A stretch of 64,000 bases of DNA from Candidatus Aenigmatarchaeota archaeon (GCA_026414305.1 JAOAJH010000002.1:39998-103997), one strand, 5' to 3'. Shown: positions 2,659-54,493, counted from the first letter of the stretch. Translations and numbers: made by a program. The notes: generated by a model not told the origin, from the letters alone.

Positions 2659-5600
2659 TTAAGTATATTGTTTCTGCAATTTATCAATGACATCGTTATA
2701 TTCTGATACTAAATCGTTTATTTTTGATACAATTTTTTCGTCTCCTGTGTAATCTATTTTATGTGATCCATCTTGAAATATAACTCTAGCATGACCTTCT
2801 GGGGATTTTATGTTATAAACAAGTTGATTTGAATTTTGATATATGTCCAACCTTAACAATCCCTTTTGAATATAACCATGAATTTCATTTTCATGAATTT
2901 CAGCATATATTTGTTTGTCAAACGATTTGTATTCTATTGTTCTTTTACCGTCAATATCTTTGATACTTATTTCTTTATCAAAAATTTTGCTGTAAATTAG
3001 ATATATGTTTGATATTATTTTTTGAAATGGAATCAAAACGTCTTGAACAAAATTGTTAGATATTTTAAACCAGGTATATCTTGGCCCAACTGTATACTCT
3101 CCTTCAAGCAAAGCTGTCACAGAATATGTCCCTGGCTTCAAGTTAAGATTAAAGCTGACCTTGTTTTCACCTGGTTCAAGATCAACTTCTTTTGTAAAAT
3201 TGTAACTTGAATCATAGCTTTCAACAAAAAATGTCAGATTATACCTTGCCTTTTTGTCTGAATATATGATAAAATCAAGAGAAGAATATTTAAAATATAT
3301 ATCTAAAATTTCTATGTGAGATTTGTATGTTACATTTATGTCAATTTTTTGAATTATCTCTTTTCCTTCACTATAATATATCAAAGGTATGAATGTATAT
3401 TCAATTTTTTTTCTATTATCCAAAAGCTCGTATGTTTCATAATATAATATTTTTTCAGGAAAACCTTGACTATGAATTGTTGAATTTGTAAAATACTTTG
3501 AATTATTTCTATAATAAACATTTTCTATTATTGTGTCTTTAGGGAAAACTATACCATCTGAGTATATAGGTATAATTTTGTCATTTATATACAGAATATC
3601 ATCTGCATCATAAAAGTAAATATTACCATCTATCACTGTATAATTTGGTGTTATTGAAAAAGACATCACCAAAGTGCTTCCATTAACATATATTTTTGGT
3701 GACTTTTTGAATTCTATAAAAGGATCATATATTTTTGAAGGTTCTCCGAGAATGTTTCTTGTGTAATATTCTTTTTTATAATGGTTCATTGTGTTAAAAT
3801 CAAGATTTATCAGTGTTTTAAAAAATTTCACTAGACTGTTTTTACCATTCTTTATAGCAAAACCAATTTCTTGATCAAGTGAATTTAAAATGATTCCTGA
3901 AGCTTTAATTGATTCTTGATAGTGAGCGTTTCCAGTGGTAATAACTGATGTTAAAGCTCCTATTTTATTCAAATTTTCATATGTATCAAAGCTGTTTGTG
4001 TAATATAAATAAAATAAAGAAGGTGTAATAGGCAATGAAGTTATTTTGATAAAACTTTTGTTTGGTGCTTCAAAATGAGATTTGTTTCCATATGCCATAT
4101 AAATTATTACATCCTTGTCATGAATAAAATCTATGAAATTTTCTTCAGTATAAATAGGTATATGTTTTTCTTCAAAATCATGTCCTTTTAACATTTTATC
4201 TATAATTGTTTCTATGTCAAACTCTAAAGTTATATAAGCAATTTCTTTTGAGATAGAAAAAAAGTCAAAAAATTGTAAAATACTTTCATATAAATCATTG
4301 CTACTTGGAATCTTTTCATAAAAATTAGATAACTTGCTTTTGATCGTATTCTTGTCAACAATTTCATATTCTGATCTCTTTTCAACTAAACGTGTGGCAT
4401 TGAAATAAAAAAGGTTGTCTTGAATTTTTATACCCTCAAGCATAAGAATTGAACCGAATGCCAAATTTGATATAGTGTCATTAGAATAAACTGAAACTAT
4501 CAAAGCATTCTTTGTTTTTCTAGGTTCCATTTCAAGCTGATATGATATTTCTTCGGCACTTCCAATTAAACGACCTACTGATAAATCAAGATAGTAATCT
4601 TCATTTATATCGGCATAAGGCGTGTCTGTATATATTTTATTTCCATCAAAATCACTAAACTTGTTGTCATCTACTGGATCATCTACCAAAAACATGGGAA
4701 CGTCAATCAAAGTCAAGAAAAATTTTTCGTTTCTTTTAAAATCAATTGTCCTTTCAAATTTTGTAAATTTGATTGTGTTTTTTAATATATTTTTTGTCTC
4801 TTGAGCATCAAAACTAGAAAATTCAATATAGGCATTTTTACGAAATCCTAAATTAGCTGCAAAAATTGAATTTTCTTTTTCCGTATTTGTTAAAACAATA
4901 TAATTTGTTTTTTTATCCTGTAAATAATATTTTATTTGATCTTTATTTTCAATTATTTTAACACTTTTTGGGTTTATTAATTTCAGTAAATCTTGATTTG
5001 GGTTTATTAGTATACTATTTCCGATCATAGAAGCTTTTATTGCTGTTTCTTTGTCACGAACTATAGTTATATCCTTCTCTTTGAAAAAAATTATGTTCAT
5101 TGTTTCTTTGTCCAAATAATATGCATTATCATAACCACTAATGTTAGAATCCAATATGAAAATTGAATTAGGCTTGTAGTAATAAATAAATTCGTCTATT
5201 AAATGAGTTGAGTTTTCATAAATCAAAACAGGGTGTTTTGTTGACACAGATTCAATGTAATTTTTCCAGTCTTTGTTTGTTATTATAATTGTTTTGTCTT
5301 TTGATTTTGTTATAACATAAGATTCTGTGAAATTGCTAGCATATTTAGTAATTATTCTTATTGTTTTCTTTCCAAGAAAATTTGTCTTGTAAAAAAACTC
5401 CAAACCATATGTTCCGTTATTGTAATTTTTAAAATTTTTTATACTTACATCTTCTTCATTAATTTTCAATAATACCTCATCAAAAGTTATGTTTTTGATG
5501 GGACTATATTTTGAAAAAACATCAAAGAGCAAAAACTGTTTCTGGCTTTCATAAACAATTTTATTTTGATTGATCAGCAAGATTGCATCATTTTTAGTCT

Positions 5601-6621
5601 CTTCATTTGATATTGAAACATTTGGCCAGGGATCTGAATATAACATAACAAAAACATTGTCATACCAAGATGTTCTGTTCATAGGATAATTGGAATATCT
5701 GCTAAAACCAATACCACCAAATTCATAAGTTGAATCTCTTACATCAAAAACCAATGTGTCATTGAAATAAATTTTCATGTTTGGATAGTTTCTAATTACT
5801 GTGAATTTGTACCATTGGTTTAATTTTGGCTTTGACAAATTGTACAAGGAATAATTATATGGATAAACTGCGCCCATGCTGGTTTGATTTAATATAGTAG
5901 TATTTTCTTCATATACTTTTCTCAAGTTGAAAGACCATCCGCCAACACCGGATCCTATCTGATATTCCCAATGAGAATTATATCTATATCCCCTGAGATT
6001 GTTGACATTAAATGATATACCAAAGCTCCATACATCAGCCTCTGTGCCAACAGAAGCGTAGGCGGTGTAAATAAATTTGGTCAAATTAACATTTTTGTTG
6101 TACATAGTTCTCCAACTAGTAGTCAAACCTGTAGAAAAAATTGATCTTAAACCATCAAAAGAATTTTGCGAGTCTATAAACCAAGTGTTAGGCTCATAAA
6201 CCCATCCTCTTTGAGACAAATTTGGATCTTCAAAGCTATCATAAAAATAGTATACATTTGCTTTGTTTGATTTAGGGTTGTATGGCTTGGTGTTTCCATA
6301 GTACAAATAATATTTATCTGTTTGGCTTTTGTTAAACAACTTGAACAATACATCGGTTTTCAAGCTATTGCAATTAATCAAATCTCTATCTATCTCTACA
6401 TTGTTTAAAACTATTATAAAGTCGGAACAGTCTGTTTTCAACCTGCCATTATTTATTAAGGTGAGCGTATCTATGGTAAAATTGATAGTAAAATTTTCTT
6501 GAATTTTTTCAATATCATGAATTTTTATTTCTCTTCTATATTTGAAATCTTCACTAAACCAAGCATATGACGATTGTAAAGATATCAGAAAAATAAAAAA
6601 TATCAGAAAAAATTTTTTCAT
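2659..6621 (-). CDS. Giant secreted/surface protein (1320 aa) with an N-terminal signal peptide. Candidate S-layer or surface glycoprotein.
   Basis: Signal peptide MKKFFLIFFIFLISLQSSYA. Very many N-x-S/T sequons, rich in Asn/Tyr/Ser, no TM segment after the signal peptide. Lies directly beside the glycosylation island. Confidence 0.7.
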   Translation of the reverse strand: MKKFFLIFFIFLISLQSSYAWFSEDFKYRREIKIHDIEKIQENFTINFTIDTLTLINNGRLKTDCSDFIIVLNNVEIDRDLINCNSLKTDVLFKLFNKSQTDKYYLYYGNTKPYNPKSNKANVYYFYDSFEDPNLSQRGWVYEPNTWFIDSQNSFDGLRSIFSTGLTTSWRTMYNKNVNLTKFIYTAYASVGTEADVWSFGISFNVNNLRGYRYNSHWEYQIGSGVGGWSFNLRKVYEENTTILNQTSMGAVYPYNYSLYNLSKPKLNQWYKFTVIRNYPNMKIYFNDTLVFDVRDSTYEFGGIGFSRYSNYPMNRTSWYDNVFVMLYSDPWPNVSISNEETKNDAILLINQNKIVYESQKQFLLFDVFSKYSPIKNITFDEVLLKINEEDVSIKNFKNYNNGTYGLEFFYKTNFLGKKTIRIITKYASNFTESYVITKSKDKTIIITNKDWKNYIESVSTKHPVLIYENSTHLIDEFIYYYKPNSIFILDSNISGYDNAYYLDKETMNIIFFKEKDITIVRDKETAIKASMIGNSILINPNQDLLKLINPKSVKIIENKDQIKYYLQDKKTNYIVLTNTEKENSIFAANLGFRKNAYIEFSSFDAQETKNILKNTIKFTKFERTIDFKRNEKFFLTLIDVPMFLVDDPVDDNKFSDFDGNKIYTDTPYADINEDYYLDLSVGRLIGSAEEISYQLEMEPRKTKNALIVSVYSNDTISNLAFGSILMLEGIKIQDNLFYFNATRLVEKRSEYEIVDKNTIKSKLSNFYEKIPSSNDLYESILQFFDFFSISKEIAYITLEFDIETIIDKMLKGHDFEEKHIPIYTEENFIDFIHDKDVIIYMAYGNKSHFEAPNKSFIKITSLPITPSLFYLYYTNSFDTYENLNKIGALTSVITTGNAHYQESIKASGIILNSLDQEIGFAIKNGKNSLVKFFKTLINLDFNTMNHYKKEYYTRNILGEPSKIYDPFIEFKKSPKIYVNGSTLVMSFSITPNYTVIDGNIYFYDADDILYINDKIIPIYSDGIVFPKDTIIENVYYRNNSKYFTNSTIHSQGFPEKILYYETYELLDNRKKIEYTFIPLIYYSEGKEIIQKIDINVTYKSHIEILDIYFKYSSLDFIIYSDKKARYNLTFFVESYDSSYNFTKEVDLEPGENKVSFNLNLKPGTYSVTALLEGEYTVGPRYTWFKISNNFVQDVLIPFQKIISNIYLIYSKIFDKEISIKDIDGKRTIEYKSFDKQIYAEIHENEIHGYIQKGLLRLDIYQNSNQLVYNIKSPEGHARVIFQDGSHKIDYTGDEKIVSKINDLVSEYNDVIDKLQKQYT

Positions 6622-32041: not shown

Positions 32042-32176
32042 ATTGAGTTTTCTCTACCAATATTCAACATAAGTGAATTCACGAATATACATTTCATATG
32101 AATGTTTATGCACGTGAAATGAACCTCACCCCTATATATGCTATGGTTTTTTAAATTAAAGATTTATTATTATTAT

Positions 32177-32827
32177 ATGGACGGTGAATTTGGTTATCTC
32201 ACGGGTATGTTGGTTGCTAAGGGAAGAATAAATGAAAAAAACAGTGATTATTACATATCCATAGAATCTTCAGATAGCAGCATGGACAGTATAATTTCAA
32301 GAATATTCATACTTTGTAACATGCCGTATAAAGTCATTGAAAGAAAAAGACTGTCATCTGGAAAAGTTCATACATCAAAACTATTCATAGTAAGGGGGAA
32401 ACTTTATGTGGAAAAGTTAAAATCATATGAAGTTTCTACAGGAAGACGTGAATGGAATGTTCCGTCACGTGCATATATTTCACGAGATTTTAGAATTGGT
32501 TTTTTACAAGCCATGTTTGATTTTACCGGCAATATAAGGTACAGACTTAAAGGAAGGCAGAAGTGTAGAAGCATAAGAATTTCATCAATAAATTCAAAGG
32601 GTATAGAATCTGTTAAAAAATTGATTGAAATGGAAGGTATAAAATCATATATTTACAAAAATGGGAAAACAAACATTCTTGAAATAGACGGAAAAAACAA
32701 TGTGTCAATTTTTGTCAAAAAAATCGGTTTTACACATAGACAAAAAAACGAGCTTGTAAAGACCATTTTAGATCCTGTGAAGTTTGACAAGTTGATTTCA
32801 CAAGGTTCACGCCAAATTTCTATCTAG
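32177..32827 (+). CDS. Degenerate double-motif LAGLIDADG-like protein (homing-endonuclease fold, catalytic Asp positions substituted)
   Basis: Motif 1 is FGYLTGMLVAKG near the N-terminus. Motif 2 is FLQAMFDFTGN about 100 aa later. A TATA-like cctatatatgc lies about 40 nt upstream. The start was chosen at the internal ATG at 32177. Confidence 0.4.
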   Translation: MDGEFGYLTGMLVAKGRINEKNSDYYISIESSDSSMDSIISRIFILCNMPYKVIERKRLSSGKVHTSKLFIVRGKLYVEKLKSYEVSTGRREWNVPSRAYISRDFRIGFLQAMFDFTGNIRYRLKGRQKCRSIRISSINSKGIESVKKLIEMEGIKSYIYKNGKTNILEIDGKNNVSIFVKKIGFTHRQKNELVKTILDPVKFDKLISQGSRQISI

Positions 32828-32848: not shown

Positions 32849-35563
32849 CTATGTGAACTGTGGTATGTATTTTTTTGATCGTTTATTGTCTTTGTAAAAA
32901 ACAACATCGCCTCTACAATTGTTGCATTTACCGGAAAGCGGGACGCGCCTTAAAATATTGCCGCATGAGATACAGACAAAACCATCTATGTCATCCAAAA
33001 AGTCTTGCAAGTCGTCATTGATTTTTTTGCCTATTATATCAAAAAGCCCTGTTTGCTTGCCTGTACCCAAAAGCTCATTTTTGCTTATATTCAAAACATC
33101 AAAAACTCTCTCCAATGGTGGTAACAGCTGATTTTCTATGTAATAGTCAGAATCTATTGGTATTTTATGTTTTACAACATATTCGGGGTCTTCTGTCCTT
33201 TTTGAAACTTGCCCAGTGCCTTTGATGATTACATATCCTACTCTATCACCTATACCTGGTGCTGAAGTTGGATCTCTTTTTCTCATTTTTTTCAAAAGCT
33301 CTATGTGGGGCTGTACACCTTTGTATGTTCTCAATGATTTGGAAATGCTCTTTGTTATAACAAGCTTGCTTATATCCATCTTTCCTGTCCTTATATCATT
33401 TATCTTTGCTTTAACTATGTTCATAGCTTTTTCAACATCTTTTTCTTTTAGTATGACATTAAGCACTTCCTGAAGAGTTTCTGAAACCAAATTACACCAA
33501 TCTCTCCTCACAGTTTCTATCCCTTTTGTAACTATGGTTTCCTCGTATTTGCCGTTGTTCTCTTCAAAACTCCATCCTGCATATCTTTTTTTGCTTAAAA
33601 TAAGTAGTGTCTTGAAAACGCTTTCTATTTTCATTCTAAGTGCATATTTCATGTTGTTGTTTATCAAATCTGCTAAACTTGCGCCTATTTTGAATGCCTC
33701 AGAAACGTCATCAATGTCAAGTTTTACCATAACAGAATCTGTATCTGCATAAACAACCTTGTATTTTGTTTTAGACTCTACTATTTTCTTTGTTGTATTT
33801 ATAGTATCCCTGCCTGTTGTTGTTATTGTGTTTGCTATGTCAAGAACATACAATCTTGCTCTAACATAACCCATATAACCATAAAAGGCGTTAGCAACTG
33901 TTTTGAAAGCATATTGTTTTGCATACAAATATTTTTTTGTTTGCTCTGATTTTGTAGTCTTCATGTCCTTTTTCACTTTGTCTCTCATGTTTATTAAATA
34001 CTCTACTATACTTGGGACTATGCCTTTTCTTATGTTTGGTGATACAAATGCTGTACCAAGTGGTGATACGATTTTATCTATTTCATAATTTGGGTCTTTG
34101 AGTAATGTTGTAGGACATATATTTAACGAAATCATTATACTTGGGTACATTGACTTGAAATCCAGATAAACAACTGCTTTGTCATGAAAACCTATTTCAG
34201 GTTGAAGCACAAAGCCTCCTTTCAAAGTTGATCCCATTCTCTCCTCGTTTCTTTTATTTAACTCATAGTCATTTGGTTTGTTTGGTATTACAAATTCCCT
34301 GTTGTTGAACTCCCTCAGAAGAATGCTTTCTATTCTTGCTGCTTCACCGCCATCTAAAACATCTTGTAAAACAAGCCCGCTTACTTTTGATATTTCAAAA
34401 AATTTATCAAGCATGTTCATTTCTACAAGCATTCTGAATGGTAGTTCTGCGTCCTTTCTGCTGTAAGAAACCAGTTTTGAAAATTTGTCACCGTCATCTT
34501 TCCAAAAAAGACTTATTTCACTATGCGAAACGTCAACTTTAGTTTCACCTAATATAAGTTGTGAAACGTCTCCTAAACCATATCTTTTCAATCCTTTGTA
34601 AAGCCCAAATTTTGTTGTAGCCTCTTTGATAAGTGAATAAACATCAACTATAACCCTGCCTGGAATGGTTATGTTATATTTTGAAGAAAACTTTGAAACC
34701 ATTATAGATTTTTGAGAGCATCTGCCTATGCTTCTCGAAATATTATTTGCTTTTAGTCTTGCTTCAATATAAGGGAAATCAAAGTTTGTTATGTTATACC
34801 CAAGCAGTATGTCAGGATCATAATCATCTATTATTTTCTTGAACTCTTCAAGCATTTGTTTTTCATTATCAAAAAATAGCGTATTTTCAAAATGATTTTT
34901 TGATTTTTTGGCTATTAAAACAACATTATTTTTTCCTTTAAATGTTGGATAAAAGAAAAGGCTTATCATTATTATAGGGTCTTTTGTTGAGTCAGGCATT
35001 ACTCCTTCATCTGAGTAAGTTTCTATATCAATGCTAATGTATTTTAATGGCGCGTTTTCCTCCTTTTCTATTGGTTTGATTTTTTTTGCTGTCATAACCA
35101 AATCTGTTTTTACAGTAGTTGTTTTTGCACCAACACCTTCTACAACATACCAACCCATTCCAACAATATTTCTGTCTGCCATAAACCTGTTTCTGAAAAG
35201 TATGTCTGCTTCGTATACATCTTTCACAAAAGGTTTTTGTTTCAAGTCGTCCCTTAATTGTGAAACAAAAGAGGGGTTTTTCAATATTGTTTTTAGCAGC
35301 TTTGTTTTTTTATCTGAAAAAAATATTGGCAAAAACATTTCAACCATTTCAAAACCAAATAAAACAGGTTTGAATTTTTCTTCAATATATTTTTTTATTT
35401 GCTCTATTTTGTCTTCATCTGCATAAACATAGAAATATGGTAAAAAATCTTCCACAAAAACAGTTATAGATTTTTTGTCCATTGTTTTTCCAAAAAGCCT
35501 TATTGTTGGATGGTCATTAATCATTACATAATCTACATCTAAAACCTGAAATTCAACTTCCAT
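32849..35563 (-). CDS. polB: Family B DNA polymerase (PolB) with a C-terminal Cys4 zinc ribbon; no intein
   Basis: Exo I IDIETYS, Exo II NITNFDFPYI, Exo III YSRKDAELP. Pol motif A DFKSMYPSIM, motif B KxxxNAFYGYMG, motif C VYADTDSV. The C-terminus is CISCGNILRRVPLSGKCNNC. Confidence 0.95.
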   Translation of the reverse strand: MEVEFQVLDVDYVMINDHPTIRLFGKTMDKKSITVFVEDFLPYFYVYADEDKIEQIKKYIEEKFKPVLFGFEMVEMFLPIFFSDKKTKLLKTILKNPSFVSQLRDDLKQKPFVKDVYEADILFRNRFMADRNIVGMGWYVVEGVGAKTTTVKTDLVMTAKKIKPIEKEENAPLKYISIDIETYSDEGVMPDSTKDPIIMISLFFYPTFKGKNNVVLIAKKSKNHFENTLFFDNEKQMLEEFKKIIDDYDPDILLGYNITNFDFPYIEARLKANNISRSIGRCSQKSIMVSKFSSKYNITIPGRVIVDVYSLIKEATTKFGLYKGLKRYGLGDVSQLILGETKVDVSHSEISLFWKDDGDKFSKLVSYSRKDAELPFRMLVEMNMLDKFFEISKVSGLVLQDVLDGGEAARIESILLREFNNREFVIPNKPNDYELNKRNEERMGSTLKGGFVLQPEIGFHDKAVVYLDFKSMYPSIMISLNICPTTLLKDPNYEIDKIVSPLGTAFVSPNIRKGIVPSIVEYLINMRDKVKKDMKTTKSEQTKKYLYAKQYAFKTVANAFYGYMGYVRARLYVLDIANTITTTGRDTINTTKKIVESKTKYKVVYADTDSVMVKLDIDDVSEAFKIGASLADLINNNMKYALRMKIESVFKTLLILSKKRYAGWSFEENNGKYEETIVTKGIETVRRDWCNLVSETLQEVLNVILKEKDVEKAMNIVKAKINDIRTGKMDISKLVITKSISKSLRTYKGVQPHIELLKKMRKRDPTSAPGIGDRVGYVIIKGTGQVSKRTEDPEYVVKHKIPIDSDYYIENQLLPPLERVFDVLNISKNELLGTGKQTGLFDIIGKKINDDLQDFLDDIDGFVCISCGNILRRVPLSGKCNNCRGDVVFYKDNKRSKKYIPQFT

Positions 35564-35610
35564 GTTGTTATTAATGTTTCCTATTTTTTAATCTGTTTAT
35601 ATTTTTTTGT

Positions 35611-36558
35611 TCATATTTCATTTACTTCTCTTGTGTGAAGATTAACTTTGAACCCTCTATCACCAACAAGTAGAATTGTTGTGCCTTTGTAGTTTTTATA
35701 TAATTTTTCACCAAAATCAGAAACTATGAAATCAGGTAAAATATCCAAAACAAAATCATCTTCAGAATAGCTTATTTTTGGATCAAATTCTTTAAGCATA
35801 TAGCGTTTTTTCAGAATATCGACAAAATAATCATTGTCTACATTTCCTATTTTTTCCAGGAATTTTTTTGGTATGACAAGAAATATCAAACCATCAAATT
35901 CTATTATTGTTGGGTTGTCAAAAGATGATGGCCTTATAAAAGATTGCTCGTTGTTTGAAACTTCTATCTCTAAATCTTCTTTTAGTTTTTTTACATCTCT
36001 GTTAAGTGGTATATCTGGATGTAACATTTTTTTGGCATAAAACTTTTCTTTTTCTCTAACACAACTAACTGCTATCACATCATCGTTTTGAAATTCATTC
36101 ATTTTTGATTTTAATATACCTTCAACATAAACCTCTATCTCACCTGTTAAATCCTCTATTATAAAAGACCTTGGTGTCTTGGAAAATATTATTCCTATGA
36201 TAGAAAACTCTTTAGTGTTTTCATTTATCTTGTTTATCGAGATTGCATTGAATCCACTCGAAATAAAAATATCTCGGATTTTTTCGTATTTTTTTGTAAG
36301 ATGAAAATTATAATCATCAATTTTAACAGTTTTTTCTTTTATTTCCCATTTTTTAATCTCTTTTAACTTTTGCTTTGGATCATTGTATTTGTTGATAATG
36401 TTATTAACATAATCATATGTCAAAAAGAATGGCCTTGTTTTCATTTTTTTTATTTCATTTATTATCAAATCTGGGTTTGTTTTTATAAGCATTAGAGAAT
36501 CTTTTGTAAGCTGCACTCCCATATCTAGAAATGTTTTTACTATTTCTTTCTCTTCCAT
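35611..36558 (-). CDS. DP1-like (PolD small subunit / eukaryotic B-subunit-like) protein, truncated and lacking a recognisable phosphoesterase core
   Basis: The N-terminal helical domain VKTFLDMGVQLTKDSLMLIK resembles the DP1 N-terminus (VKGLMKNGYLITPSAYYLL...). The OB-fold stretch SIIGIIFSKTPRSFIIEDLTGEIEVYV resembles the DP1 OB domain. It is only 315 aa with no GNHD/GHxH motifs. Its start overlaps the orc1 stop (TAATG). Confidence 0.45.
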   Translation of the reverse strand: MEEKEIVKTFLDMGVQLTKDSLMLIKTNPDLIINEIKKMKTRPFFLTYDYVNNIINKYNDPKQKLKEIKKWEIKEKTVKIDDYNFHLTKKYEKIRDIFISSGFNAISINKINENTKEFSIIGIIFSKTPRSFIIEDLTGEIEVYVEGILKSKMNEFQNDDVIAVSCVREKEKFYAKKMLHPDIPLNRDVKKLKEDLEIEVSNNEQSFIRPSSFDNPTIIEFDGLIFLVIPKKFLEKIGNVDNDYFVDILKKRYMLKEFDPKISYSEDDFVLDILPDFIVSDFGEKLYKNYKGTTILLVGDRGFKVNLHTREVNEI

Positions 36559-37772
36559 TATACCACTAGATTTTCGTTCAATATATTTCTTATTTTTTCT
36601 TTTATTGTTTCATTTAAATTAAGCATTATAACTCTCGTCCTACCATACCTTCCTAAAGATGTAACTTTGGCGTTTATTATACCTGTCATATCCAATTCAG
36701 ATATCAAATCAGATATTCTTCTCTGTGTTAAAGGAAACAGGCCTATTTCCTTGCATTTTTCTTGATATATGTCATAAACCTCTCCTGTTTGTATATCCTC
36801 TTTTTTTGTGTTTGAAAGTTCCAAAATGGCCCATAAAACAACTTTGGTTTGTTTTGGTAAGGATTTTGTTGATTCTATAACTCTGTCATAATCAATTTTT
36901 TCTTGGGCCATGTCAACATGTTTTTCTGTCACTTTTGAGTCGTTCATTCTTTCAGCTATTTCACCTGCAACCCTTAAAAGATCCAATGCCCTTCTAGCAT
37001 CACCGTGCTCTTGTGCAGCAAGTGCAGCACATTTTGGTATAACCTCCTCTGAAACAACACCGTTGTAGAATGCTATTTCTGATCTATTTTTCAATATATC
37101 GTGTAGTTGTGTTGCGTTATATGGAAAAAACAAAACCTCTTCTTCTCTCAATGAACTCTTTACTCTTGGGTCAAGAACTTCTATAAAATGAAGGTCGTTT
37201 GTTATGCCTATTATTGATATTTTTGAATTTTTCAATTCTTGATTTATTCTTGTTAAATTATAAAGAAATTCGTCTCCTATTTTTTCAACCAAAGCATCAA
37301 TTTCATCTAATATTATTATTACTGTGCTTTTTTCAGAATCCAAAGCATTAAAAAATGTCTGGTATATATAGTCTGTCGGCAGGCCTGTAGCAGGTAGCTC
37401 ATAACCCAAAAGACGAGACAACTCTGCCATTAACCTATATTCGGTGTCTGATATTTTTTTCATTTTGCAATTTACATACAATACTTTAATAGGATGGTTT
37501 CCTTGTTTTGATATTTTTTCTAATTCATCTGTTATATGTCTTGAAACAAGTGTTTTACCTGTACCTGTCAAACCGTAAATAAAAATATTGGAAGGTCTTC
37601 CCCCTTTTAATGAAGGTGCTAATATAGACGCTATTGTGTTTATTTCCTTGTTTCTGTGTTGTATTGTTTCTGGTATAAAATCAGATGTTAAGACGTCTCT
37701 ATTCTTAAAAATTGGTGTTGATTTTGATATATATTCTTGGAAAATGTGTTTTATTGTCTTCGGGTTGTCCAT
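36558..37772 (-). CDS. orc1: Orc1/Cdc6 replication initiator
   Basis: AAA+ Walker A GLTGTGKT, Walker B IIILDEID, and a C-terminal winged helix. Adjacent to an AT-rich repeat-bearing intergenic region. Confidence 0.9.
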   Translation of the reverse strand: MDNPKTIKHIFQEYISKSTPIFKNRDVLTSDFIPETIQHRNKEINTIASILAPSLKGGRPSNIFIYGLTGTGKTLVSRHITDELEKISKQGNHPIKVLYVNCKMKKISDTEYRLMAELSRLLGYELPATGLPTDYIYQTFFNALDSEKSTVIIILDEIDALVEKIGDEFLYNLTRINQELKNSKISIIGITNDLHFIEVLDPRVKSSLREEEVLFFPYNATQLHDILKNRSEIAFYNGVVSEEVIPKCAALAAQEHGDARRALDLLRVAGEIAERMNDSKVTEKHVDMAQEKIDYDRVIESTKSLPKQTKVVLWAILELSNTKKEDIQTGEVYDIYQEKCKEIGLFPLTQRRISDLISELDMTGIINAKVTSLGRYGRTRVIMLNLNETIKEKIRNILNENLVV

Positions 37773-37967
37773 AAAATGAAATTATTCCTATAGAAATAAA
37801 CCTTTTTCTATTGGAAATTATATGTTACACCCACCCCTTTGTTTCTTTTGGAAATTATCATATAATAAATATATAAAATGATATAACAGTATTATATTAT
37901 TATATTATTTGGTTGTTTCATCTTTTTTTTAAAAAAATATAAATTCCATTAGAAATAAACGGGTGTC
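37773..37967. other. Candidate replication origin (oriC) with ORB-like direct repeats flanking an AT-rich DUE
   Basis: TTCCTATAGAAATAAAC (37785-37802) and TTCCATTAGAAATAAAC (37944-37961) resemble the mini-ORB core TTCCAnnGGAAAC. Two TTnTTGGAAATTAT copies lie at 37806-37821 and 37843-37858. An AT-rich stretch runs 37859-37943. The region is immediately upstream of orc1. Confidence 0.55.
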
Positions 37968-38651
37968 TCACTCTATTAAATTTATGATTTTTGCTTCAGG
38001 TCTTTCTTTACTGATATCTACAAAACCAACATAACCCTCGGCAAATCTACCTGGATTTATTAATAATGTATTGTTAATGTAATCAATACCCCTAGCTTCA
38101 TGTATATGGGCAGAAACAGCAATAATCGGCGAATATTTTTCTATAAAATTTCTTACAACTCTTGATCCAACATGCATACCTGTAGTTATATAATCCAACT
38201 TTGTGTCTATTGGTGGTGTATGTGTTATCTGAACTTTTTTATTAACTTTCATTACATCTATAAATGCCCTTTCTAACCCTTTTTTTATTTCTTCATCTTT
38301 TGGTTCGTATGATGTATTAAAAGGTGTTTGTGCTCCACCAAAACCATAAAAACCAACATTGTTTATGATTTTACCTTTACCATGTACACTTATATTTTCC
38401 TTGTCTATAAGATCAATAATATTTTTATCGTCATTGTTTCCAGGCACAGCAACGACAGGTTTTTTGAATATTCTTAACTCCTCTATTATTATTTTGGCAA
38501 CATCTTCTTGTGTGAATCCCTTTGGTGTATTTATGTCACTAAAATCACCAGCATAAATTATCACATCAAACTCATGTTCAGACAATACGTCAATGAACGT
38601 GAACATGTTTTCTATATCATTGTGGTTGTCACTTAATACAAGTAGTTTCAT
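37968..38651 (-). CDS. Calcineurin-like metallophosphoesterase
   Basis: LLVLSDNHND...VIIYAGDFSD...GNNDD...HIHE metallophosphatase motifs. Confidence 0.75.
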   Translation of the reverse strand: MKLLVLSDNHNDIENMFTFIDVLSEHEFDVIIYAGDFSDINTPKGFTQEDVAKIIIEELRIFKKPVVAVPGNNDDKNIIDLIDKENISVHGKGKIINNVGFYGFGGAQTPFNTSYEPKDEEIKKGLERAFIDVMKVNKKVQITHTPPIDTKLDYITTGMHVGSRVVRNFIEKYSPIIAVSAHIHEARGIDYINNTLLINPGRFAEGYVGFVDISKERPEAKIINLIE

Positions 38652-38956
38652 TCTATCACCTTTGTTTTTATTTCAAAACCATTGTTTTTTGTTTTTATCC
38701 ATATTTCTATTGGTATATTATGTTCCTTTGCAAACATTTCTATATTTTTAAATTGCACCTTTTCTCTGGGTTTTATGTAAAACTTTTCTTTTTTTGTGCC
38801 CTTTACTTCAATTATCTTTTCTATCTTGTTTTGGTTGGGTGAAAGCACAATAAAATCTGCAGATTGCCCTATGGCCAGTTTCAGCACATTTTGTTTTCCG
38901 TATTTTTCTATCAACTTTTGTTTTACAAAATACTCATATCTATATCCTTTATGCAT
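38648..38956 (-). CDS. hjc: Holliday junction resolvase Hjc-like PD-(D/E)xK nuclease
   Basis: KGYRYEYFVKQKLIEKYG...ADFIVL...IEVKGTKKEKFYI aligns with Hjc (KGAQAERELIKLLEKHG...VDLVAG...IEVKVTKKDHLYV). Confidence 0.7.
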   Translation of the reverse strand: MHKGYRYEYFVKQKLIEKYGKQNVLKLAIGQSADFIVLSPNQNKIEKIIEVKGTKKEKFYIKPREKVQFKNIEMFAKEHNIPIEIWIKTKNNGFEIKTKVIE

Positions 38957-39005: not shown

Positions 39006-39545
39006 ATGGTAATGGATGTAAAAGTAGAAAAAATAATGACAAAAAAACCACTTACAGTGAATAAAAACGATGACATAGCATCTGTTGCAAAGAAAATGGC
39101 AGAAAACAGGATAGGATCTGCGATAGTTCAAGACAACGGAAACCCAATAGGTATAATCACAGAAACAGATCTTGTGAAAAAAATAGTTGCTGCGTCATTA
39201 GATGCAAAAAAATTCAAAGCTAAAGATATAATGAGTCATCCATTGGTTTTTGTCACACCAAATGACGATTATAAAGTCGCTGTTGAAAAGATGAGAAAAC
39301 ATAAAATAAAGAGAATACCTGTTATAGATTCAGGAAAAGTCGTTGGTATAGTTACAACAACTGATATAGCAAGAACTGTACCAGAAATGATAGAAATATT
39401 AAAAGAAAGAACAGGTATGAAATCAACACAACCAATAATAAAAACAGCAGTTGCTTCAGGTCTATGTGAGATCTGCGGAAACTATTCAGATTTTTTGGTA
39501 TTTGAAGACGACCAATGGATATGTGAAGTTTGTAGAGAAGAGTAA
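39006..39545 (+). CDS. CBS-pair protein with a C-terminal zinc ribbon
   Basis: Two CBS domains followed by CEICGN...CEVCREE. Confidence 0.8.
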   Translation: MVMDVKVEKIMTKKPLTVNKNDDIASVAKKMAENRIGSAIVQDNGNPIGIITETDLVKKIVAASLDAKKFKAKDIMSHPLVFVTPNDDYKVAVEKMRKHKIKRIPVIDSGKVVGIVTTTDIARTVPEMIEILKERTGMKSTQPIIKTAVASGLCEICGNYSDFLVFEDDQWICEVCREE

Positions 39546-39577
39546 TTTTCTTTAAATCAAGGGATAAAATAAATAAT

Positions 39578-40363
39578 ATGATTTTCATAGATAGAGTTTT
39601 TTCTGAAAAGAAAATATCCACTGTTATGCAAAAAAATGTTATAACAGCTGAATTTGGAACAAAAATAATTGATGTGTCTAAAATTATATTTAAATTTGGA
39701 CATAGAAGGATACCCATTGTAAAGAAAAGCATAGTTTCTAAAAAAACAATCGGTATAGTCACAATAATGGACATTTTAGACGCATACTTGAGAGGAGTTA
39801 GTTTTGAGAATAAAATCGAAGATATAATGACAAGAGATTTTATATATTGTTATAACGATGATAAAGTTGAAGATGTTATAAGGAAGTTTCAATTTTCAAG
39901 AAGAGGCGGTTTTCCAGTTTTGGATCAAAGAAAAAATCTTGTGGGAATAGTGACAGAAAACGATGTCATAGGATTCATAAATGAAGATAGTCTAAAAAAC
40001 AAAGTAAAATATTTCATGACAAAAAAACCATTTTATCTAAAAAAACAAAAAATGTTAGAATCAATAAAAATATTGGTTAATACAAAATATAGAAAATTAC
40101 CAATAGTGGAATCAAACAAAATACAAGGACTTTTGACAGATAGAATATGTTTGAAAGAAGTAATAAACAACTCAGATTTGCAAAGATATAATACTGATTT
40201 TTGCATAAAGGATCTGATTTATGTAAACCCTGAAGATGACATCATGAAAGCGATAAATATAATGAGAGAAAAAAAACTTGGGGGCATACCGGTTGTAGAA
40301 AAAGAAAAACTAGTAGGAATTATAACGGAAAGAGATATATTAGACAAAATAAAATTTACATAG
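39578..40363 (+). CDS. CBS-domain protein (four CBS repeats)
   Basis: The repeated hPhV....lvGIvT..Dil pattern occurs four times. Confidence 0.8.
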   Translation: MIFIDRVFSEKKISTVMQKNVITAEFGTKIIDVSKIIFKFGHRRIPIVKKSIVSKKTIGIVTIMDILDAYLRGVSFENKIEDIMTRDFIYCYNDDKVEDVIRKFQFSRRGGFPVLDQRKNLVGIVTENDVIGFINEDSLKNKVKYFMTKKPFYLKKQKMLESIKILVNTKYRKLPIVESNKIQGLLTDRICLKEVINNSDLQRYNTDFCIKDLIYVNPEDDIMKAINIMREKKLGGIPVVEKEKLVGIITERDILDKIKFT

Positions 40364-46535: not shown

Positions 46536-47669
46536 CTAAACAAAACCTCTAAATAACTCTAAAAATCTATTCAAGTCGTTTTTTGCCAGTGTAACTCCAA
46601 TTGCAGACTTGTGTCCACCCCCCTTGATTGTGGGCATTTCTTTTTTGATTTTGTTTACAATCTCAACTAAATCTATATTTCTCATACTTTGCTCTATTCT
46701 TATGCTAAGTTTAACATTGAAACCCTTGTCTCTACCAATCACGCAAATTATCCAATCTGGATATTTTTGTCTGAGTTTATCAGACGCAAAAGATGTTATG
46801 GAGTTTATATTGCTATGTTTTGCTTCATAAACAAGGATTTTTTTGTCTTGAATAAACTTGCCATTTATTTTAACGTCATCAAGAATTTTTCTGTTTTCCC
46901 TTTCAATATTTTCATAAAATCTTCTAACAACATACGAATTTGTGCTTAGACCATTTATAAATTTTCCAGGATCATTTTTACATTCTATAAGGGCGTTAAC
47001 GACAACAAGCGCTCCATTCATCCTTTTAATCATTCTACCAGATCTTACCATGTCCCAAAGTTCACCAAAAACAGAGTTTTCAATACTTTTTTGGTTTATT
47101 TCTTTCAAATGAAAAAAACTTCCAAACTCACGTTTTACATCTTCAAATACATCTTTACATAGATCGACCCTGTGATCTTCCGTTATACCTATTGCAGCTA
47201 TCCAAGAAACTCTTTCTTCCGGAAAAAATACCTTAAGTAGTTTGTATATCATGTAAGAAGTTGGCGGTACATATTCATCCTTTTTTTCAAAATCTCTTGG
47301 ATTTATATATTTCATATTATTTTTGCTTTGTATGCTCTGTACATGATGATCAAGTATGAATCCATTAAATACACCCAATCTTTTTGGATCTATTGTAACA
47401 TCCAGTGTAAAAACAAAATCAGGGTTGAAAGTTTTAAGTTTCATCAGTAAATTTTTTGAAAGATTGTTCGGTCCTCTTATTGGAAAGAGTTCTGGAAATT
47501 GATTTGTTAATCTGAAAAGCAATATAGACATCAAGGTAGCAGATGTACAGCCGTCTGCGTCATCATGATGTATTATGCATACTTTGTTGCCACTTTGAAC
47601 GTTTTTTATTTCATCTTTAAGAAGATTTAGTAATTCTGTAAAATTATTCAGATTTTTCACCCATTTCAT
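46536..47669 (-). CDS. DHH-DHHA1 phosphoesterase (NrnA/RecJ-like nanoRNase family)
   Basis: CIIHHDDADG, LDHH and the DHHA1 GGGHKSAIG motif. Confidence 0.8.
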   Translation of the reverse strand: MKWVKNLNNFTELLNLLKDEIKNVQSGNKVCIIHHDDADGCTSATLMSILLFRLTNQFPELFPIRGPNNLSKNLLMKLKTFNPDFVFTLDVTIDPKRLGVFNGFILDHHVQSIQSKNNMKYINPRDFEKKDEYVPPTSYMIYKLLKVFFPEERVSWIAAIGITEDHRVDLCKDVFEDVKREFGSFFHLKEINQKSIENSVFGELWDMVRSGRMIKRMNGALVVVNALIECKNDPGKFINGLSTNSYVVRRFYENIERENRKILDDVKINGKFIQDKKILVYEAKHSNINSITSFASDKLRQKYPDWIICVIGRDKGFNVKLSIRIEQSMRNIDLVEIVNKIKKEMPTIKGGGHKSAIGVTLAKNDLNRFLELFRGFV

Positions 47670-50929: not shown

Positions 50930-51352
50930 ATGTTCATTACTCACGATCACGAAAAAATGATATCTTTGCTTCAAGAATTTTCAATAATTGTTGAAGGCAA
51001 AAATGACAAAAGTGCTTTAGAAAAACTAGGTATACAAAAGATATATACAATTTCAGGTAAAACAATAGAAAAGTTCACATCTGAATTGCCAAAAGATGAA
51101 TATGTAATCTTAACTGATTTTGATCGTGAGGGTGAACTAAAGAAGCAAAGAATCTATAGATTAGTTGAAAATAACAAGATAAAATACAACCCAGAGCTTA
51201 GATTGAAATTTAAAGAGCTCTTCAAGGTGGTGAAAATAGAAGAATTGAATAAAATATCAAAAATAATGGAGGATGTTCAAAATGGGAAAAATAGCTCAAT
51301 CTACAATAAAATACTTAATAGAAGCAGATTTTACCGCAGAAGGTTTAGTTGA
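50930..51352 (+). CDS. Small stand-alone Toprim-domain protein (COG1658-like)
   Basis: IIVEGKNDKSALEKLG...VILTDFDREGE Toprim E and DxD motifs. 140 aa. Confidence 0.7.
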   Translation: MFITHDHEKMISLLQEFSIIVEGKNDKSALEKLGIQKIYTISGKTIEKFTSELPKDEYVILTDFDREGELKKQRIYRLVENNKIKYNPELRLKFKELFKVVKIEELNKISKIMEDVQNGKNSSIYNKILNRSRFYRRRFS

Positions 51353-52457
51353 AAAGCCAGATATAATAGGCGCCGTTTTTGGGCAAACAGAAGGTTTGTT
51401 GGGCCAAGATTTGGATTTAAGAGAATTGCAAAAATCAGGAAGAATAGGAAGAATAGATGTTGATTTAAGGGAAAAAGATGGAAAGACAGAAGGCACAATA
51501 TACATACCTTCTAGTTTGGATAGCTCAGAAACAGCTTTAATAGCTGCTGCAGTCGAAACAATAGAAAGAATAGGCCCATGCGAAGCCAAAATCAAACTAC
51601 GAGATGTAAAGGATATAAGAGAAGTTAAAAGGGAATATGTTGTTGACAGGGCAAAAGAGATATTACAAAAACTGATGAAAGAGCAACCTGATGCTGACGC
51701 ACTTGCCGAATCTATAAAAGGATCTGTGAGAACGTCAGAAATAATTGAATATCATGGAATAGAATGCGGGCCAGATGCCATCGAAGCAGAAGAAGTTATA
51801 CTTGTTGAAGGAAGGGCAGATGTGGCAAACCTTTTGAAAAATGGAATAAGAAATGTTGCAGCAGTTGGTGGCACTTCAGCTGGCAGATCAATATTAGAGA
51901 TAACAAAAGGCAAAAAAGTTACAGTTTTTCTTGATGGTGACAGAGGCGGTGATTTGATACTCAAGAAGTTGTCTAGAATTGTGAGGATAGATAGCGTGGT
52001 TCGCGCACCTGACGGAAAGGAAGTAGAAGAGTTGACAGACAAAGAAATTTTCAAGGCGCTTAGACAAAAGGTGCCATTTTCAGAGGCAATAAGAAAAAGA
52101 GGAAGGTCAGCAAGAGCTGAGCAAATAGAAGCAGAGCCAGAAAAAGAGTTGAGTTATGCAGTTAAATCAAAAATAAAGGACATACTCGATAAAATGGTTG
52201 GCACAAGGGCAGCATATGTTTTTAATAAACGCATGAAAATGATTGAAAAATTACCTTTGACGCAATTTACAGAAGAAAATCAAGCAATACGAAATGCAGA
52301 GATAGTTTTAATAGACGGTTCCATAACAAAAGAGATTATTGATGTTGCAGACAGAGCTGGGATAGAATATCTAGTTGCATCGAGTGCCGATAAAAAATTT
52401 GAAACGACAAAAACAAAGATATTGACATTAGACGATTTGAACAACACTCAAGTCTAA
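51273..52457 (+). CDS. dnaG: Archaeal DnaG-like primase (Toprim; exosome-associated type)
   Basis: N-terminal hallmark KYLIEADFTAEGLVEKPDIIGAVFGQTEGLLG. Toprim motifs VILVEGRADV and LDGDRGGD. Confidence 0.8.
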   Translation: MFKMGKIAQSTIKYLIEADFTAEGLVEKPDIIGAVFGQTEGLLGQDLDLRELQKSGRIGRIDVDLREKDGKTEGTIYIPSSLDSSETALIAAAVETIERIGPCEAKIKLRDVKDIREVKREYVVDRAKEILQKLMKEQPDADALAESIKGSVRTSEIIEYHGIECGPDAIEAEEVILVEGRADVANLLKNGIRNVAAVGGTSAGRSILEITKGKKVTVFLDGDRGGDLILKKLSRIVRIDSVVRAPDGKEVEELTDKEIFKALRQKVPFSEAIRKRGRSARAEQIEAEPEKELSYAVKSKIKDILDKMVGTRAAYVFNKRMKMIEKLPLTQFTEENQAIRNAEIVLIDGSITKEIIDVADRAGIEYLVASSADKKFETTKTKILTLDDLNNTQV

Positions 52458-53428: not shown

Positions 53429-54493
53429 ATGGAGAATAAATACGAATATTTTCATAGGTTTGGTTGGTCAAAAAACCCGTTTAATCTTACCATATCCCCA
53501 GACCTTATGGTGGGATATTCAAAGCAAACAGAATCTCTCCTTACTCATGTTTTCAATCAGCATAAAGCGGCAATGGTAATAGGGCCTACAGGTGCTGGGA
53601 AAACAACAATTCTTACATGGTTGAATGCCCAAATAAAGGCATATAATGGGTTTAAAACATATTATGTGCCCAAACCACCTGTAAGTAAAGATGAGTTAAT
53701 TCAGCTGTTTAAACATAATCTTGGTTTTGGGTTTATAGATAAAATAATCTATAAAAATGTAGACATAAACAATCTTACAAGCTATATAACAAAAAAGACA
53801 AAGGTAAGAACAATATTTTTGGTTGATGAAGCACATGAATGCTCTATTGAAGTCTTGGAGTGGCTGAGAACAATAAATGATATGGTACCCAACCTTGTAA
53901 TAGTTTTTGCCGGGTTGCCTACATTTGAAAAGAAACTTGAAACAGAACTACCAACACTTTTAATGCGTGTGAATACACGTGTATTGTTAGAGTCTCTATC
54001 TGAGATGGAAACAGAATCACTTATACAGAAGAGGATTGATTTTGCAGGAGGTGAAGGCATAAAACCCTTCACTAATGATGCTATAAAGAAAATTCATGAA
54101 ATAACAGGAGGCTTCCCAAGAGAGATAATAAAAGTTTGTGACCAGCTTGTTAAAGAGGCCAGCCTGAGGAACCTTAGTTCAATAAACGCTCATTTGGTTG
54201 AACAGATTTTCAGTGAAAAAATAGTTTCACATGCAGATCAAGTGAAGTTCACGTTAACACCAAAACAAAAAGAAATACTTGAAATGTTGAACAAAAACCC
54301 AGATCTTTCACCATCAGAGATAGTGGAAAGAATAAATGTAAAGGAATACAAGACAAAAGACCATGCAATAAGGTCTGTTAATAACATACTCAAAAGGTTG
54401 ATGGATGAAGATTTGATAAAAAGGGCAAAAGTGGCAAACAAATTTGTATATTCTCTTTCAGGGAAAGCAAAAACCATCCTTGCAGAAGCGTGA
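53429..54493 (+). CDS. ExeA-type AAA+ ATPase (AAA_22/COG3267-like) with a C-terminal winged-helix domain
   Basis: The N-terminal FHRFGWSKNPFNLTISPD is an ExeA-like FGL..PF motif. Walker A GPTGAGKTT, Walker B FLVDEAHE. C-terminal wHTH PSEIVERINVKEY...ILKRLMDEDLI. Confidence 0.7.
   Translation: MENKYEYFHRFGWSKNPFNLTISPDLMVGYSKQTESLLTHVFNQHKAAMVIGPTGAGKTTILTWLNAQIKAYNGFKTYYVPKPPVSKDELIQLFKHNLGFGFIDKIIYKNVDINNLTSYITKKTKVRTIFLVDEAHECSIEVLEWLRTINDMVPNLVIVFAGLPTFEKKLETELPTLLMRVNTRVLLESLSEMETESLIQKRIDFAGGEGIKPFTNDAIKKIHEITGGFPREIIKVCDQLVKEASLRNLSSINAHLVEQIFSEKIVSHADQVKFTLTPKQKEILEMLNKNPDLSPSEIVERINVKEYKTKDHAIRSVNNILKRLMDEDLIKRAKVANKFVYSLSGKAKTILAEA

Follow-up and report, generated by a model that had tools for sequence, protein, structure and literature searches.

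In the archaeal phylum Aenigmatarchaeota, a family B DNA polymerase (PolB) with a zinc motif resembling that of DP2, the large subunit of DNA polymerase D (PolD), was described by Kazlauskas et al. in 2020 and assigned to the group B6-aenigma1 (PMC7544198). These polymerases co-occur with inactive homologs of DP1, the PolD small subunit, most genomes of the phylum have no DP2, and it was proposed that the B6-aenigma1 PolB replaced DP2 (PMC7544198). More recently (Nat Ecol Evol 2025), yeast two-hybrid assays and AlphaFold3 models showed that DP1 binds PolB fused to a DP2-type C-terminal domain (PolB-DP2CTD), and in the two-hybrid assays DP1 bound only PolBs bearing a DP2-derived C-terminal domain (CTD); the phylum was reported to lack DP2, its CTD was called shorter and degenerate, and the group B6-aenigma2 was reassigned to Baldrarchaeial contamination (PMC12680538). 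The locus described here is a further example of this pairing. It occupies positions 32849-37967 of a 64,000-nucleotide stretch from a Candidatus Aenigmatarchaeota archaeon (GCA_026414305.1 JAOAJH010000002.1:39998-103997), called the window below and counted from its first letter, and comprises a candidate replication origin, the initiator gene orc1/cdc6, a gene for a 315-amino-acid (aa) DP1-like protein and polB. The reading preferred here, to which we give a probability of roughly 0.8, is that the PolB-DP2CTD and the DP1-like protein form a two-subunit replicase in which the zinc ribbon of the polymerase docks on the DP1-like protein as a non-catalytic scaffold, the interaction itself being taken from the literature. 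The pairing of a PolB with an inactive DP1-type protein is real but already published for the phylum; since the point was made in 2020 and experimentally supported in 2025, the window is another example and not a discovery. This answers the question of prior description that had been left open in a first-pass annotation of the window (PMC7544198, PMC12680538).

The first-pass annotation had placed four contiguous elements on the minus strand, and all four are found there. The polB gene (32849-35563, 904 aa) was identified by Pfam, NCBIfam and motif reading, and the gene for the DP1-like protein (35611-36558, 315 aa) by profile, fold and alignment; orc1/cdc6 (36558-37772, 404 aa) has Pfam Cdc6_lid and Cdc6_C domains and matches NCBIfam NF001625 at 1.5e-158 and 527.8 bits, above the cut-off of 501. 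The 195-bp spacer at 37773-37967, which contains elements resembling origin recognition boxes (ORBs) and an AT-rich stretch, is the candidate oriC. The orc1 stop overlaps the start of the DP1-like gene as TAATG (ggtaTAATGgaag), as the annotation had read it, and the gap between the DP1-like open reading frame (ORF) and polB is 47 nt and holds no T-run. Because of this overlap and the short spacing, orc1, the DP1-like gene and polB are probably co-transcribed. The DP1-like protein and PolB are 100% identical to GenBank entries (MCX8178507.1 and MCX8178506.1, respectively) of a Ca. Aenigmarchaeota metagenome-assembled genome (MAG), the former on a contig of 177,925 bp. Both genes are labelled as encoding hypothetical proteins in GenBank, and the annotation can therefore be corrected.

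Profile and fold comparisons support descent of the 315-aa protein from DP1. The NCBIfam model of the PolD small subunit (NF003118) matches residues 1-197 only, with E 1.9e-17 and a score of 63.4 bits, below the equivalog cut-off of 445. A profile of the DP1-like family matches DP1 chains in the PDB at 6e-40 to 8e-33, with the OB and phosphoesterase (PDE) regions matched separately. The AlphaFold2 model of the protein (pLDDT, the per-residue confidence score, 91.2; pTM, the template modelling score, 0.81) finds DP1 of P. abyssi as the top Foldseek match (E 4.6e-14), followed by human B subunits, those of Pol delta, Pol epsilon and Pol alpha, at 1e-9 to 1e-6. The domain order is that of DP1: a predicted N-terminal four-helix domain (residues ~1-65, 36364-36558, minus strand), an OB fold (residues ~100-180, 36019-36261, minus strand) and a reduced PDE fold, of which residues 197-315 remain (35614-35970, minus strand). 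The OB fold carries the invariant motifs SINK and EDxTG and was recognized by a weak Pfam tRNA_anti-codon OB match, by alignment and by the DP1 OB profile and fold matches; the PDE remnant was recognized by alignment, by the DP1 PDE profile match and by hidden Markov model (HMM) matches in two segments. A database search returned 111 relatives of 300-417 aa, nearly all from Aenigmatarchaeota, and a scan of a genome collection with the single 315-aa protein as query gave no match.

Alignment across the range of lengths locates the loss in the PDE domain. An internal block of ~80 aa containing PDE motifs I-III is deleted in the 315-aa protein; in relatives of 380-400 aa the corresponding block has motif I (SDLHxD), motif II (ILGD) and a degenerate motif III, which is intact in no member of the family. 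Motif V of the 315-aa protein is degenerate (SDFGE). The protein contains no GNH, GHxH or DxH and has no Pfam Metallophos match, and GNH[DE] was found in 0 of ~72 species-level DP1-like homologs. Judged by its motifs, the protein cannot be a nuclease, because motifs I-III are deleted and GNH and GHxH are missing. Conservation in the DP1-like protein is highest in the C-terminal part of its PDE domain, and the remnant keeps invariant L249, R252, PD275-276, NYKGTT289-294, L307 and R310. The earlier description of a DP1-like N-terminal helical domain and OB fold, without a phosphoesterase core and without GNHD or GHxH, thus agrees with these results, including the significant DP1 similarity that profile searches with the 35611-36558 product have now given. 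Its term "truncated" holds in that the protein is shortened; the loss is internal and not C-terminal, with the C-terminal portion of the PDE domain still present.

PolB was matched by Pfam DNA_pol_B (9e-117) and exo1 (3e-44). Its exonuclease motifs ExoI (IDIET178), ExoII (NITNFDFPY257) and ExoIII (YSRKDA367) and its polymerase motifs A (DFKSMYPS468) and C (YADTDS605) and KKRY658 are intact, and motif B (KTVANAFYG) was read straight from the translation. These motifs confirm, at the level of sequence, a polymerase predicted to be catalytically intact and proofreading-proficient. The polymerase domain is a candidate member of group B6, which stands next to the eukaryotic Delta-like clade; in the PDB its top sequence matches, Pol delta catalytic subunits (9.5e-112), lead Thermococcales PolB (4.7e-107) by a small margin only. 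The last conserved segment of the thumb, YYIENQLLPPLERVF, is followed, in the interval between thumb and ribbon, by the motif QTGLFDII (residues 837-844, 33032-33055, minus strand), which resembles a PCNA-interacting protein (PIP) box and is kept in 105 of 119 homologs; it would be expected to bind PCNA. Its position is presumably that of the C-terminal PIP box of Thermococcales PolB. After a linker of ~20 residues, the protein ends in a zinc ribbon, C864-x2-C867-x12-C880-x2-C883 (32915-32974, minus strand), recognized by profile, NCBIfam and conservation. The window polB contains no intein. A free-standing LAGLIDADG-type gene (32138-32827, plus strand, 229 aa) lies directly downstream of it, and a 205-aa LAGLIDADG gene is found at the equivalent position beside polB in a related locus (L001).

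The ribbon reads C864-ISC-x12-C880-NNC883, with a putative docking loop, RRVP, at residues 872-875. It is kept in 118 of the 120 closest PolB homologs; in the alignment of PolB tails the four cysteines are invariant, R and P in the loop are conserved to at least 90%, and RRxP is the best-conserved part of the ribbon other than the cysteines. When a profile of the tail was compared with the PDB, residues 1129-1157 of DP2 (6knb_B) ranked first (2.1e-6), followed by DP2 chains 6hms_B and 6t8h_B (1.3e-5), and the next match, CTCF, was at 0.02. The similarity to DP2 reaches past the cysteines in the profile alignment, and NCBIfam DP2 models align to PolB residues 862-900 (1e-4). The matched DP2 segment falls inside the C-terminal domain modelled by Raia 2019 (residues 1096-1195), in which Zn-III has R1131/R1132, and it spans these two arginines (PMC6355029). 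In PolD the KxRRxP loop of Zn-III docks in an electronegative groove at the interface of the DP1 OB and PDE domains, and a 20-residue Zn-III peptide has nanomolar affinity for DP1 (PMC6355029). Taken together, the sequence comparisons support a specific identification of the PolB ribbon with Zn-III of the DP2 C-terminal domain. The earlier proposals that an intact PolB ends in CxxC-x12-CxxC, and that this ribbon resembles the cysteine modules which bind B subunits, are both borne out, the first by the motifs and C864-C883 read in the sequence and the second by the DP2 chains matched at 2e-6 and the shared RRxP loop. The same DP1 profile and fold results and the DP2 Zn-III ribbon support the view that the locus pairs an archaeal PolB with an inactivated DP1 in a eukaryote-like manner.

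An assembly of the following kind would account for these features. The locus would encode a two-subunit replicative polymerase beside a chromosomal origin and the gene for its initiator. Its catalytic subunit would be the proofreading PolB, with its PIP-like motif and its Zn-III ribbon derived from DP2, and its second subunit the DP1-like protein, a descendant of the PolD small subunit that lost its nuclease and had the part of its PDE domain with motifs I-III deleted. If PolD and eukaryotic Pol alpha, delta and epsilon are taken as guides, the RRxP loop most likely docks in a groove that the OB fold forms with the PDE remnant; the docking geometry proposed for the 315-aa form and its role as a scaffold are both drawn from this analogy, and conservation of the docking motif supports the contact indirectly. 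The DP1-like protein would then act as a non-catalytic B subunit, probably linked to GINS/CMG through its N-terminal domain. In Thermococcus, DP1N is reported to bind Gins51C (PMC9023282).

A different assignment of roles was considered, in which the ribbon serves mainly to contact DNA, primase or another partner and does not dock on DP1, leaving the DP1-like protein a role of its own, perhaps as a single-stranded-DNA-binding OB protein or origin factor co-expressed with Orc1. In the clamp-1 of PolD, Zn-III is also placed along the DNA duplex (PMC6355029), primase is a binding partner of the DP2 CTD in both Thermococcus and Heimdall archaea (PMC12680538), some loci keep orc1 and the DP1-like gene paired with polB elsewhere (L040, L060, L070, L078 and L082, described below), and the 185-aa forms of the DP1-like protein have no PDE half of the docking groove. 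Such a division of roles is nonetheless unlikely, given that the docking loop RRxP is the part of the ribbon that is conserved best after the cysteines and that two-hybrid binding of DP1 was limited to PolBs with a DP2-derived CTD (PMC12680538). Loss of RRxP in PolB and of NYKG in the DP1-like protein also tend to coincide: the strict forms of the two motifs are co-kept or co-lost with an odds ratio of 4.9 (p 0.008), a co-variation that is confounded by phylogeny and only suggestive, because the species are not independent.

To place the locus among its relatives, a genome collection was scanned with the PolB tail alignment, which gave 80 species-level loci, nearly all labelled Aenigmatarchaeota; neighbourhoods were read from ORFs called in six frames and searched by HMM and phmmer. 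Every PolB of these loci has the zinc ribbon. The DP1-like protein ranges from 181 to 488 aa, with forms of 340-400 aa predominating in the phylum and a uniform 315-316 aa in the clade of the window. On a neighbour-joining tree of PolB, a quick distance tree that was used only for the clustering of short forms, such forms appear in additional clades apart from this one. The shortest forms, of 181-185 aa, have no domains other than the N-terminal one and the OB fold and are found in two independent MAGs (L010, 5052-5609; L014, 5056-5601), where orc1 and the short gene overlap as ATGA and the next gene is a polB with zinc ribbon and RRxP; no PDE remnant was found elsewhere in either locus. On the basis of this rough tree we suggest, tentatively and at slightly less than even odds, that the dead PDE domain was eroded repeatedly and apparently independently (~400, 340-370, 315 and 181-185 aa), with ribbon and adjacency kept. 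The 181-185-aa proteins may be the most reduced polymerase B subunit and, if this history is right, would to our knowledge be the smallest such subunits known. The N-terminal domain and OB fold would then be the minimal part needed by a B subunit, and the standing of the OB/PDE groove as an essential docking site would be put in question. What a B subunit can lose would be the catalytic half or the whole of the PDE domain, and what it cannot lose would be the N-terminal domain, the OB fold and the ribbon of its polymerase. Together with the order orc1, DP1-like gene and polB at a conserved origin, these forms would offer a compact natural system for dissecting the purpose of a B subunit.

This erosion could also be taken as decay. 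The 315-aa gene would then be a functionless relic of DP1, held beside polB by inertia after DP2 was lost. Unequal erosion of the PDE domain between clades, down to 181-185 aa, and the absence of an intact motif III throughout the family are what such decay would leave. Against it, the ORF is intact in ~70 species with SINK, ED, L249, R252, PD, NYKGTT, L307 and R310 invariant, adjacency to polB is conserved, and the AlphaFold2 fold is confident (pLDDT 91). The erosion is restricted to the catalytic half of one domain, and a two-hybrid interaction has been published for the phylum (PMC12680538). A relic of this kind is very unlikely.

The two-subunit replicase is itself open to several objections. 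Two species have forms of 181-185 aa without any PDE remnant; either the OB/PDE groove is not strictly needed or docking differs in these lineages. The two-hybrid assays used an unspecified Aenigmatarchaeota DP1, and the pipeline of that study dropped truncated sequences (PMC12680538). The absence of DP2, finally, is established within the 64-kb window only. All ORFs of at least 350 aa in the window were scanned and none is a DP2, which matches the first impression that no such gene was visible there. The 1320-aa ORF at 2659-6621 was considered as a candidate and rejected, its sole match being DUF2341. This protein belongs to a large cell-surface and glycosylation cluster (2659-25506) that also includes several GT4 glycosyltransferases, three PMT_2-family proteins, an STT3 oligosaccharyltransferase, a flippase-like protein and a B12/radical-SAM enzyme.

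The gene order around the module is conserved to different depths. With the exception of one clade, every locus whose sequence extends far enough upstream of polB has the DP1-like gene immediately before it. In this deep clade (L040, L060, L070, L078, L082) orc1 and a gene for a ~300-aa DP1-like protein are adjacent, and polB (870-883 aa) lies 2-4 kb off on the opposite strand. The pairing of orc1 with the DP1-like gene can outlast that of the DP1-like gene with polB, because this clade keeps only the former. A metallophosphoesterase gene is found upstream of the module in nearly all related loci; in the window it is a stand-alone gene at 37968-38651 (minus strand, 227 aa, Pfam Metallophos). 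Only in the superclade of the window is orc1 located between the metallophosphoesterase gene (~225 aa) and the DP1-like gene, and in other clades small winged-helix-like ORFs fill this interval. Two such loci, without orc1 at this place, have conserved small ORFs in the ~1 kb that separates the metallophosphoesterase gene from the DP1-like gene (L004, 6825-7985; L036, 3581-4471), one of ~120 aa and one or two of ~75-88 aa, which are winged-helix-like (…ISWNTVxKYLxEL…). The 227-aa metallophosphoesterase was considered as a detached DP1 PDE domain and rejected: its PDB relatives are aq_1956 and MJ0936, and its hhalign probability against the DP1-like family is 1%, so that it is not a detached DP1 nuclease domain. 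Conserved upstream neighbours in distant species are the YfcE/aq_1956-type metallophosphoesterase, a 102-aa protein (38648-38956, minus strand, with weak Hjc/PD-(D/E)xK-like matches) and CBS-domain genes; the gene at 39006-40363 (plus strand) also belongs to this set.

Conserved context bears on whether orc1, the DP1-like gene and polB might be replication genes of a mobile element or virus that has integrated, instead of encoding the chromosomal replicase of the host. Kazlauskas et al. suggest that B6 PolBs may derive from mobile elements (PMC7544198), and a free-standing LAGLIDADG gene flanks polB. The block nevertheless sits in a housekeeping context (metallophosphoesterase, CBS, NAC, AdoMet synthase, glycosyltransferase) that is shared in distant species, one copy is present in essentially every Aenigmatarchaeota species representative found, and its surroundings showed no integrase, capsid or terminal repeats; a mobile origin of the module is hardly credible. 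Near-identical or close copies of the genes occur under other taxon labels, namely WOR-3, Planctomycetota, Omnitrophica, "bacterium", Micrarchaeota and Bathyarchaeota (P0002/P0112, P0019 and P0210; L021, L033, L035 and L072). These labels are probably errors of MAG binning or labelling.

The candidate oriC has the organization of classical archaeal origins, known from Sulfolobus and Pyrococcus, in which ORBs accompany a duplex unwinding element (DUE); the familiar ORB consensus was used. A full ORB-like element with G-string, TTCCAAAAGAAACAAAGGGGTGGGTG, lies at 37828-37853 on the minus strand, and an inverted one, ATTCCATTAGAAATAAACGGGTGTC, at 37943-37967 (also given as ATTCCATTAGAAATAAACGGGTG). 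The two face each other across an AT-rich putative unwinding element of 90 bp and 10% GC (37854-37943). A pair of mini-ORBs (37805-37816, minus strand; 37785-37796, plus strand) lies just upstream of the orc1 ATG. Sites of the form TTCC-N4-GAAA occur 10 times in the window, with an expectation of 4.8 per 64 kb, and 4 of the 10 fall in the 195-bp spacer (Poisson P ~2e-9). An equivalent layout is found upstream of orc1 in the related loci L001 and L002. The 9-nt sequence ACTGTTATA (~37884-37892, minus-strand reading) is conserved in the window, L001 and L002, and the AT-rich stretch around it otherwise drifts freely between the three. With inverted ORBs flanking an AT-rich element beside orc1, the spacer is a credible ORB/DUE-type oriC, as had first been proposed, at which Orc1 would bind and replication would be initiated. 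Its linkage to orc1 and its well-defined ORB/DUE elements make it a clear candidate chromosomal origin for an uncultured phylum. Other replication-type genes lie no more than 16 kb from it: a DHH/DHHA1 RecJ/GAN-like protein (46536-47669, minus strand), a Toprim (DnaG-like) protein (51273-52457, plus strand) and a second Orc-like AAA+ protein with a winged-helix C-terminus (53429-54493, plus strand).

Compared with the described systems, the locus is closest to B6-aenigma1, from which it shows no essential difference. It shares with that system the phylum, a PolB of ~900 aa, a single CxxC-x12-CxxC close to DP2 Zn-III, a DP1 homolog without an active phosphoesterase site and the lack of a DP2 in view; the DP1-like protein in the clade of the window is shorter (315 aa, motifs I-III deleted). 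Gene adjacency, linkage to orc1 and an origin, and graded erosion are not mentioned in the main texts of the two earlier studies (PMC7544198, PMC12680538). What is added here is incremental: the internal deletion, the graded erosion to N-terminal domain and OB fold, the near-universal adjacency, and the linkage to orc1 and the origin in one subclade.

PolD (P. abyssi 6HMS and 6T8H, T. kodakarensis 6KNB) has the same domain order in its small subunit and the same Zn-III ribbon with RRxP. The catalytic subunit here, however, belongs to family B and is not a double-psi-barrel DP2, and it has no equivalent of the helical bundle found in the DP2 CTD. Nuclease motifs and ~80 PDE residues are missing from the small subunit here, and proofreading would be carried out by the exonuclease domain of PolB. 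In Baldrarchaeia, which also lack DP2, PolB3-DP2CTD and DP1 are likewise an archaeal fusion of PolB with a DP2 CTD that binds DP1; the Baldrarchaeial CTD is full length and eukaryote-like, whereas that of Aenigmatarchaeota is shorter, which fits the 40-aa ribbon found here (PMC12680538). Eukaryotic Pol delta, alpha and epsilon with their B subunits (p50, p70 and p59/Dpb2) resemble the locus in joining a PolB with a C-terminal Cys4 module to an inactive partner of the DP1 family. Their CTDs have two metal modules (CysA and CysB) and helices, in contrast to the one ribbon without helical bundle here, and their B subunits keep a complete, inactive PDE domain, which in the DP1-like protein of the window is short by ~80 residues. 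Eukaryotic Pol alpha, delta and epsilon are built in this way, from a PolB to which a DP2-derived zinc module joins a DP1-type subunit that has been inactivated; finding the same architecture in archaea is relevant to the question of how eukaryotic replicases came together.

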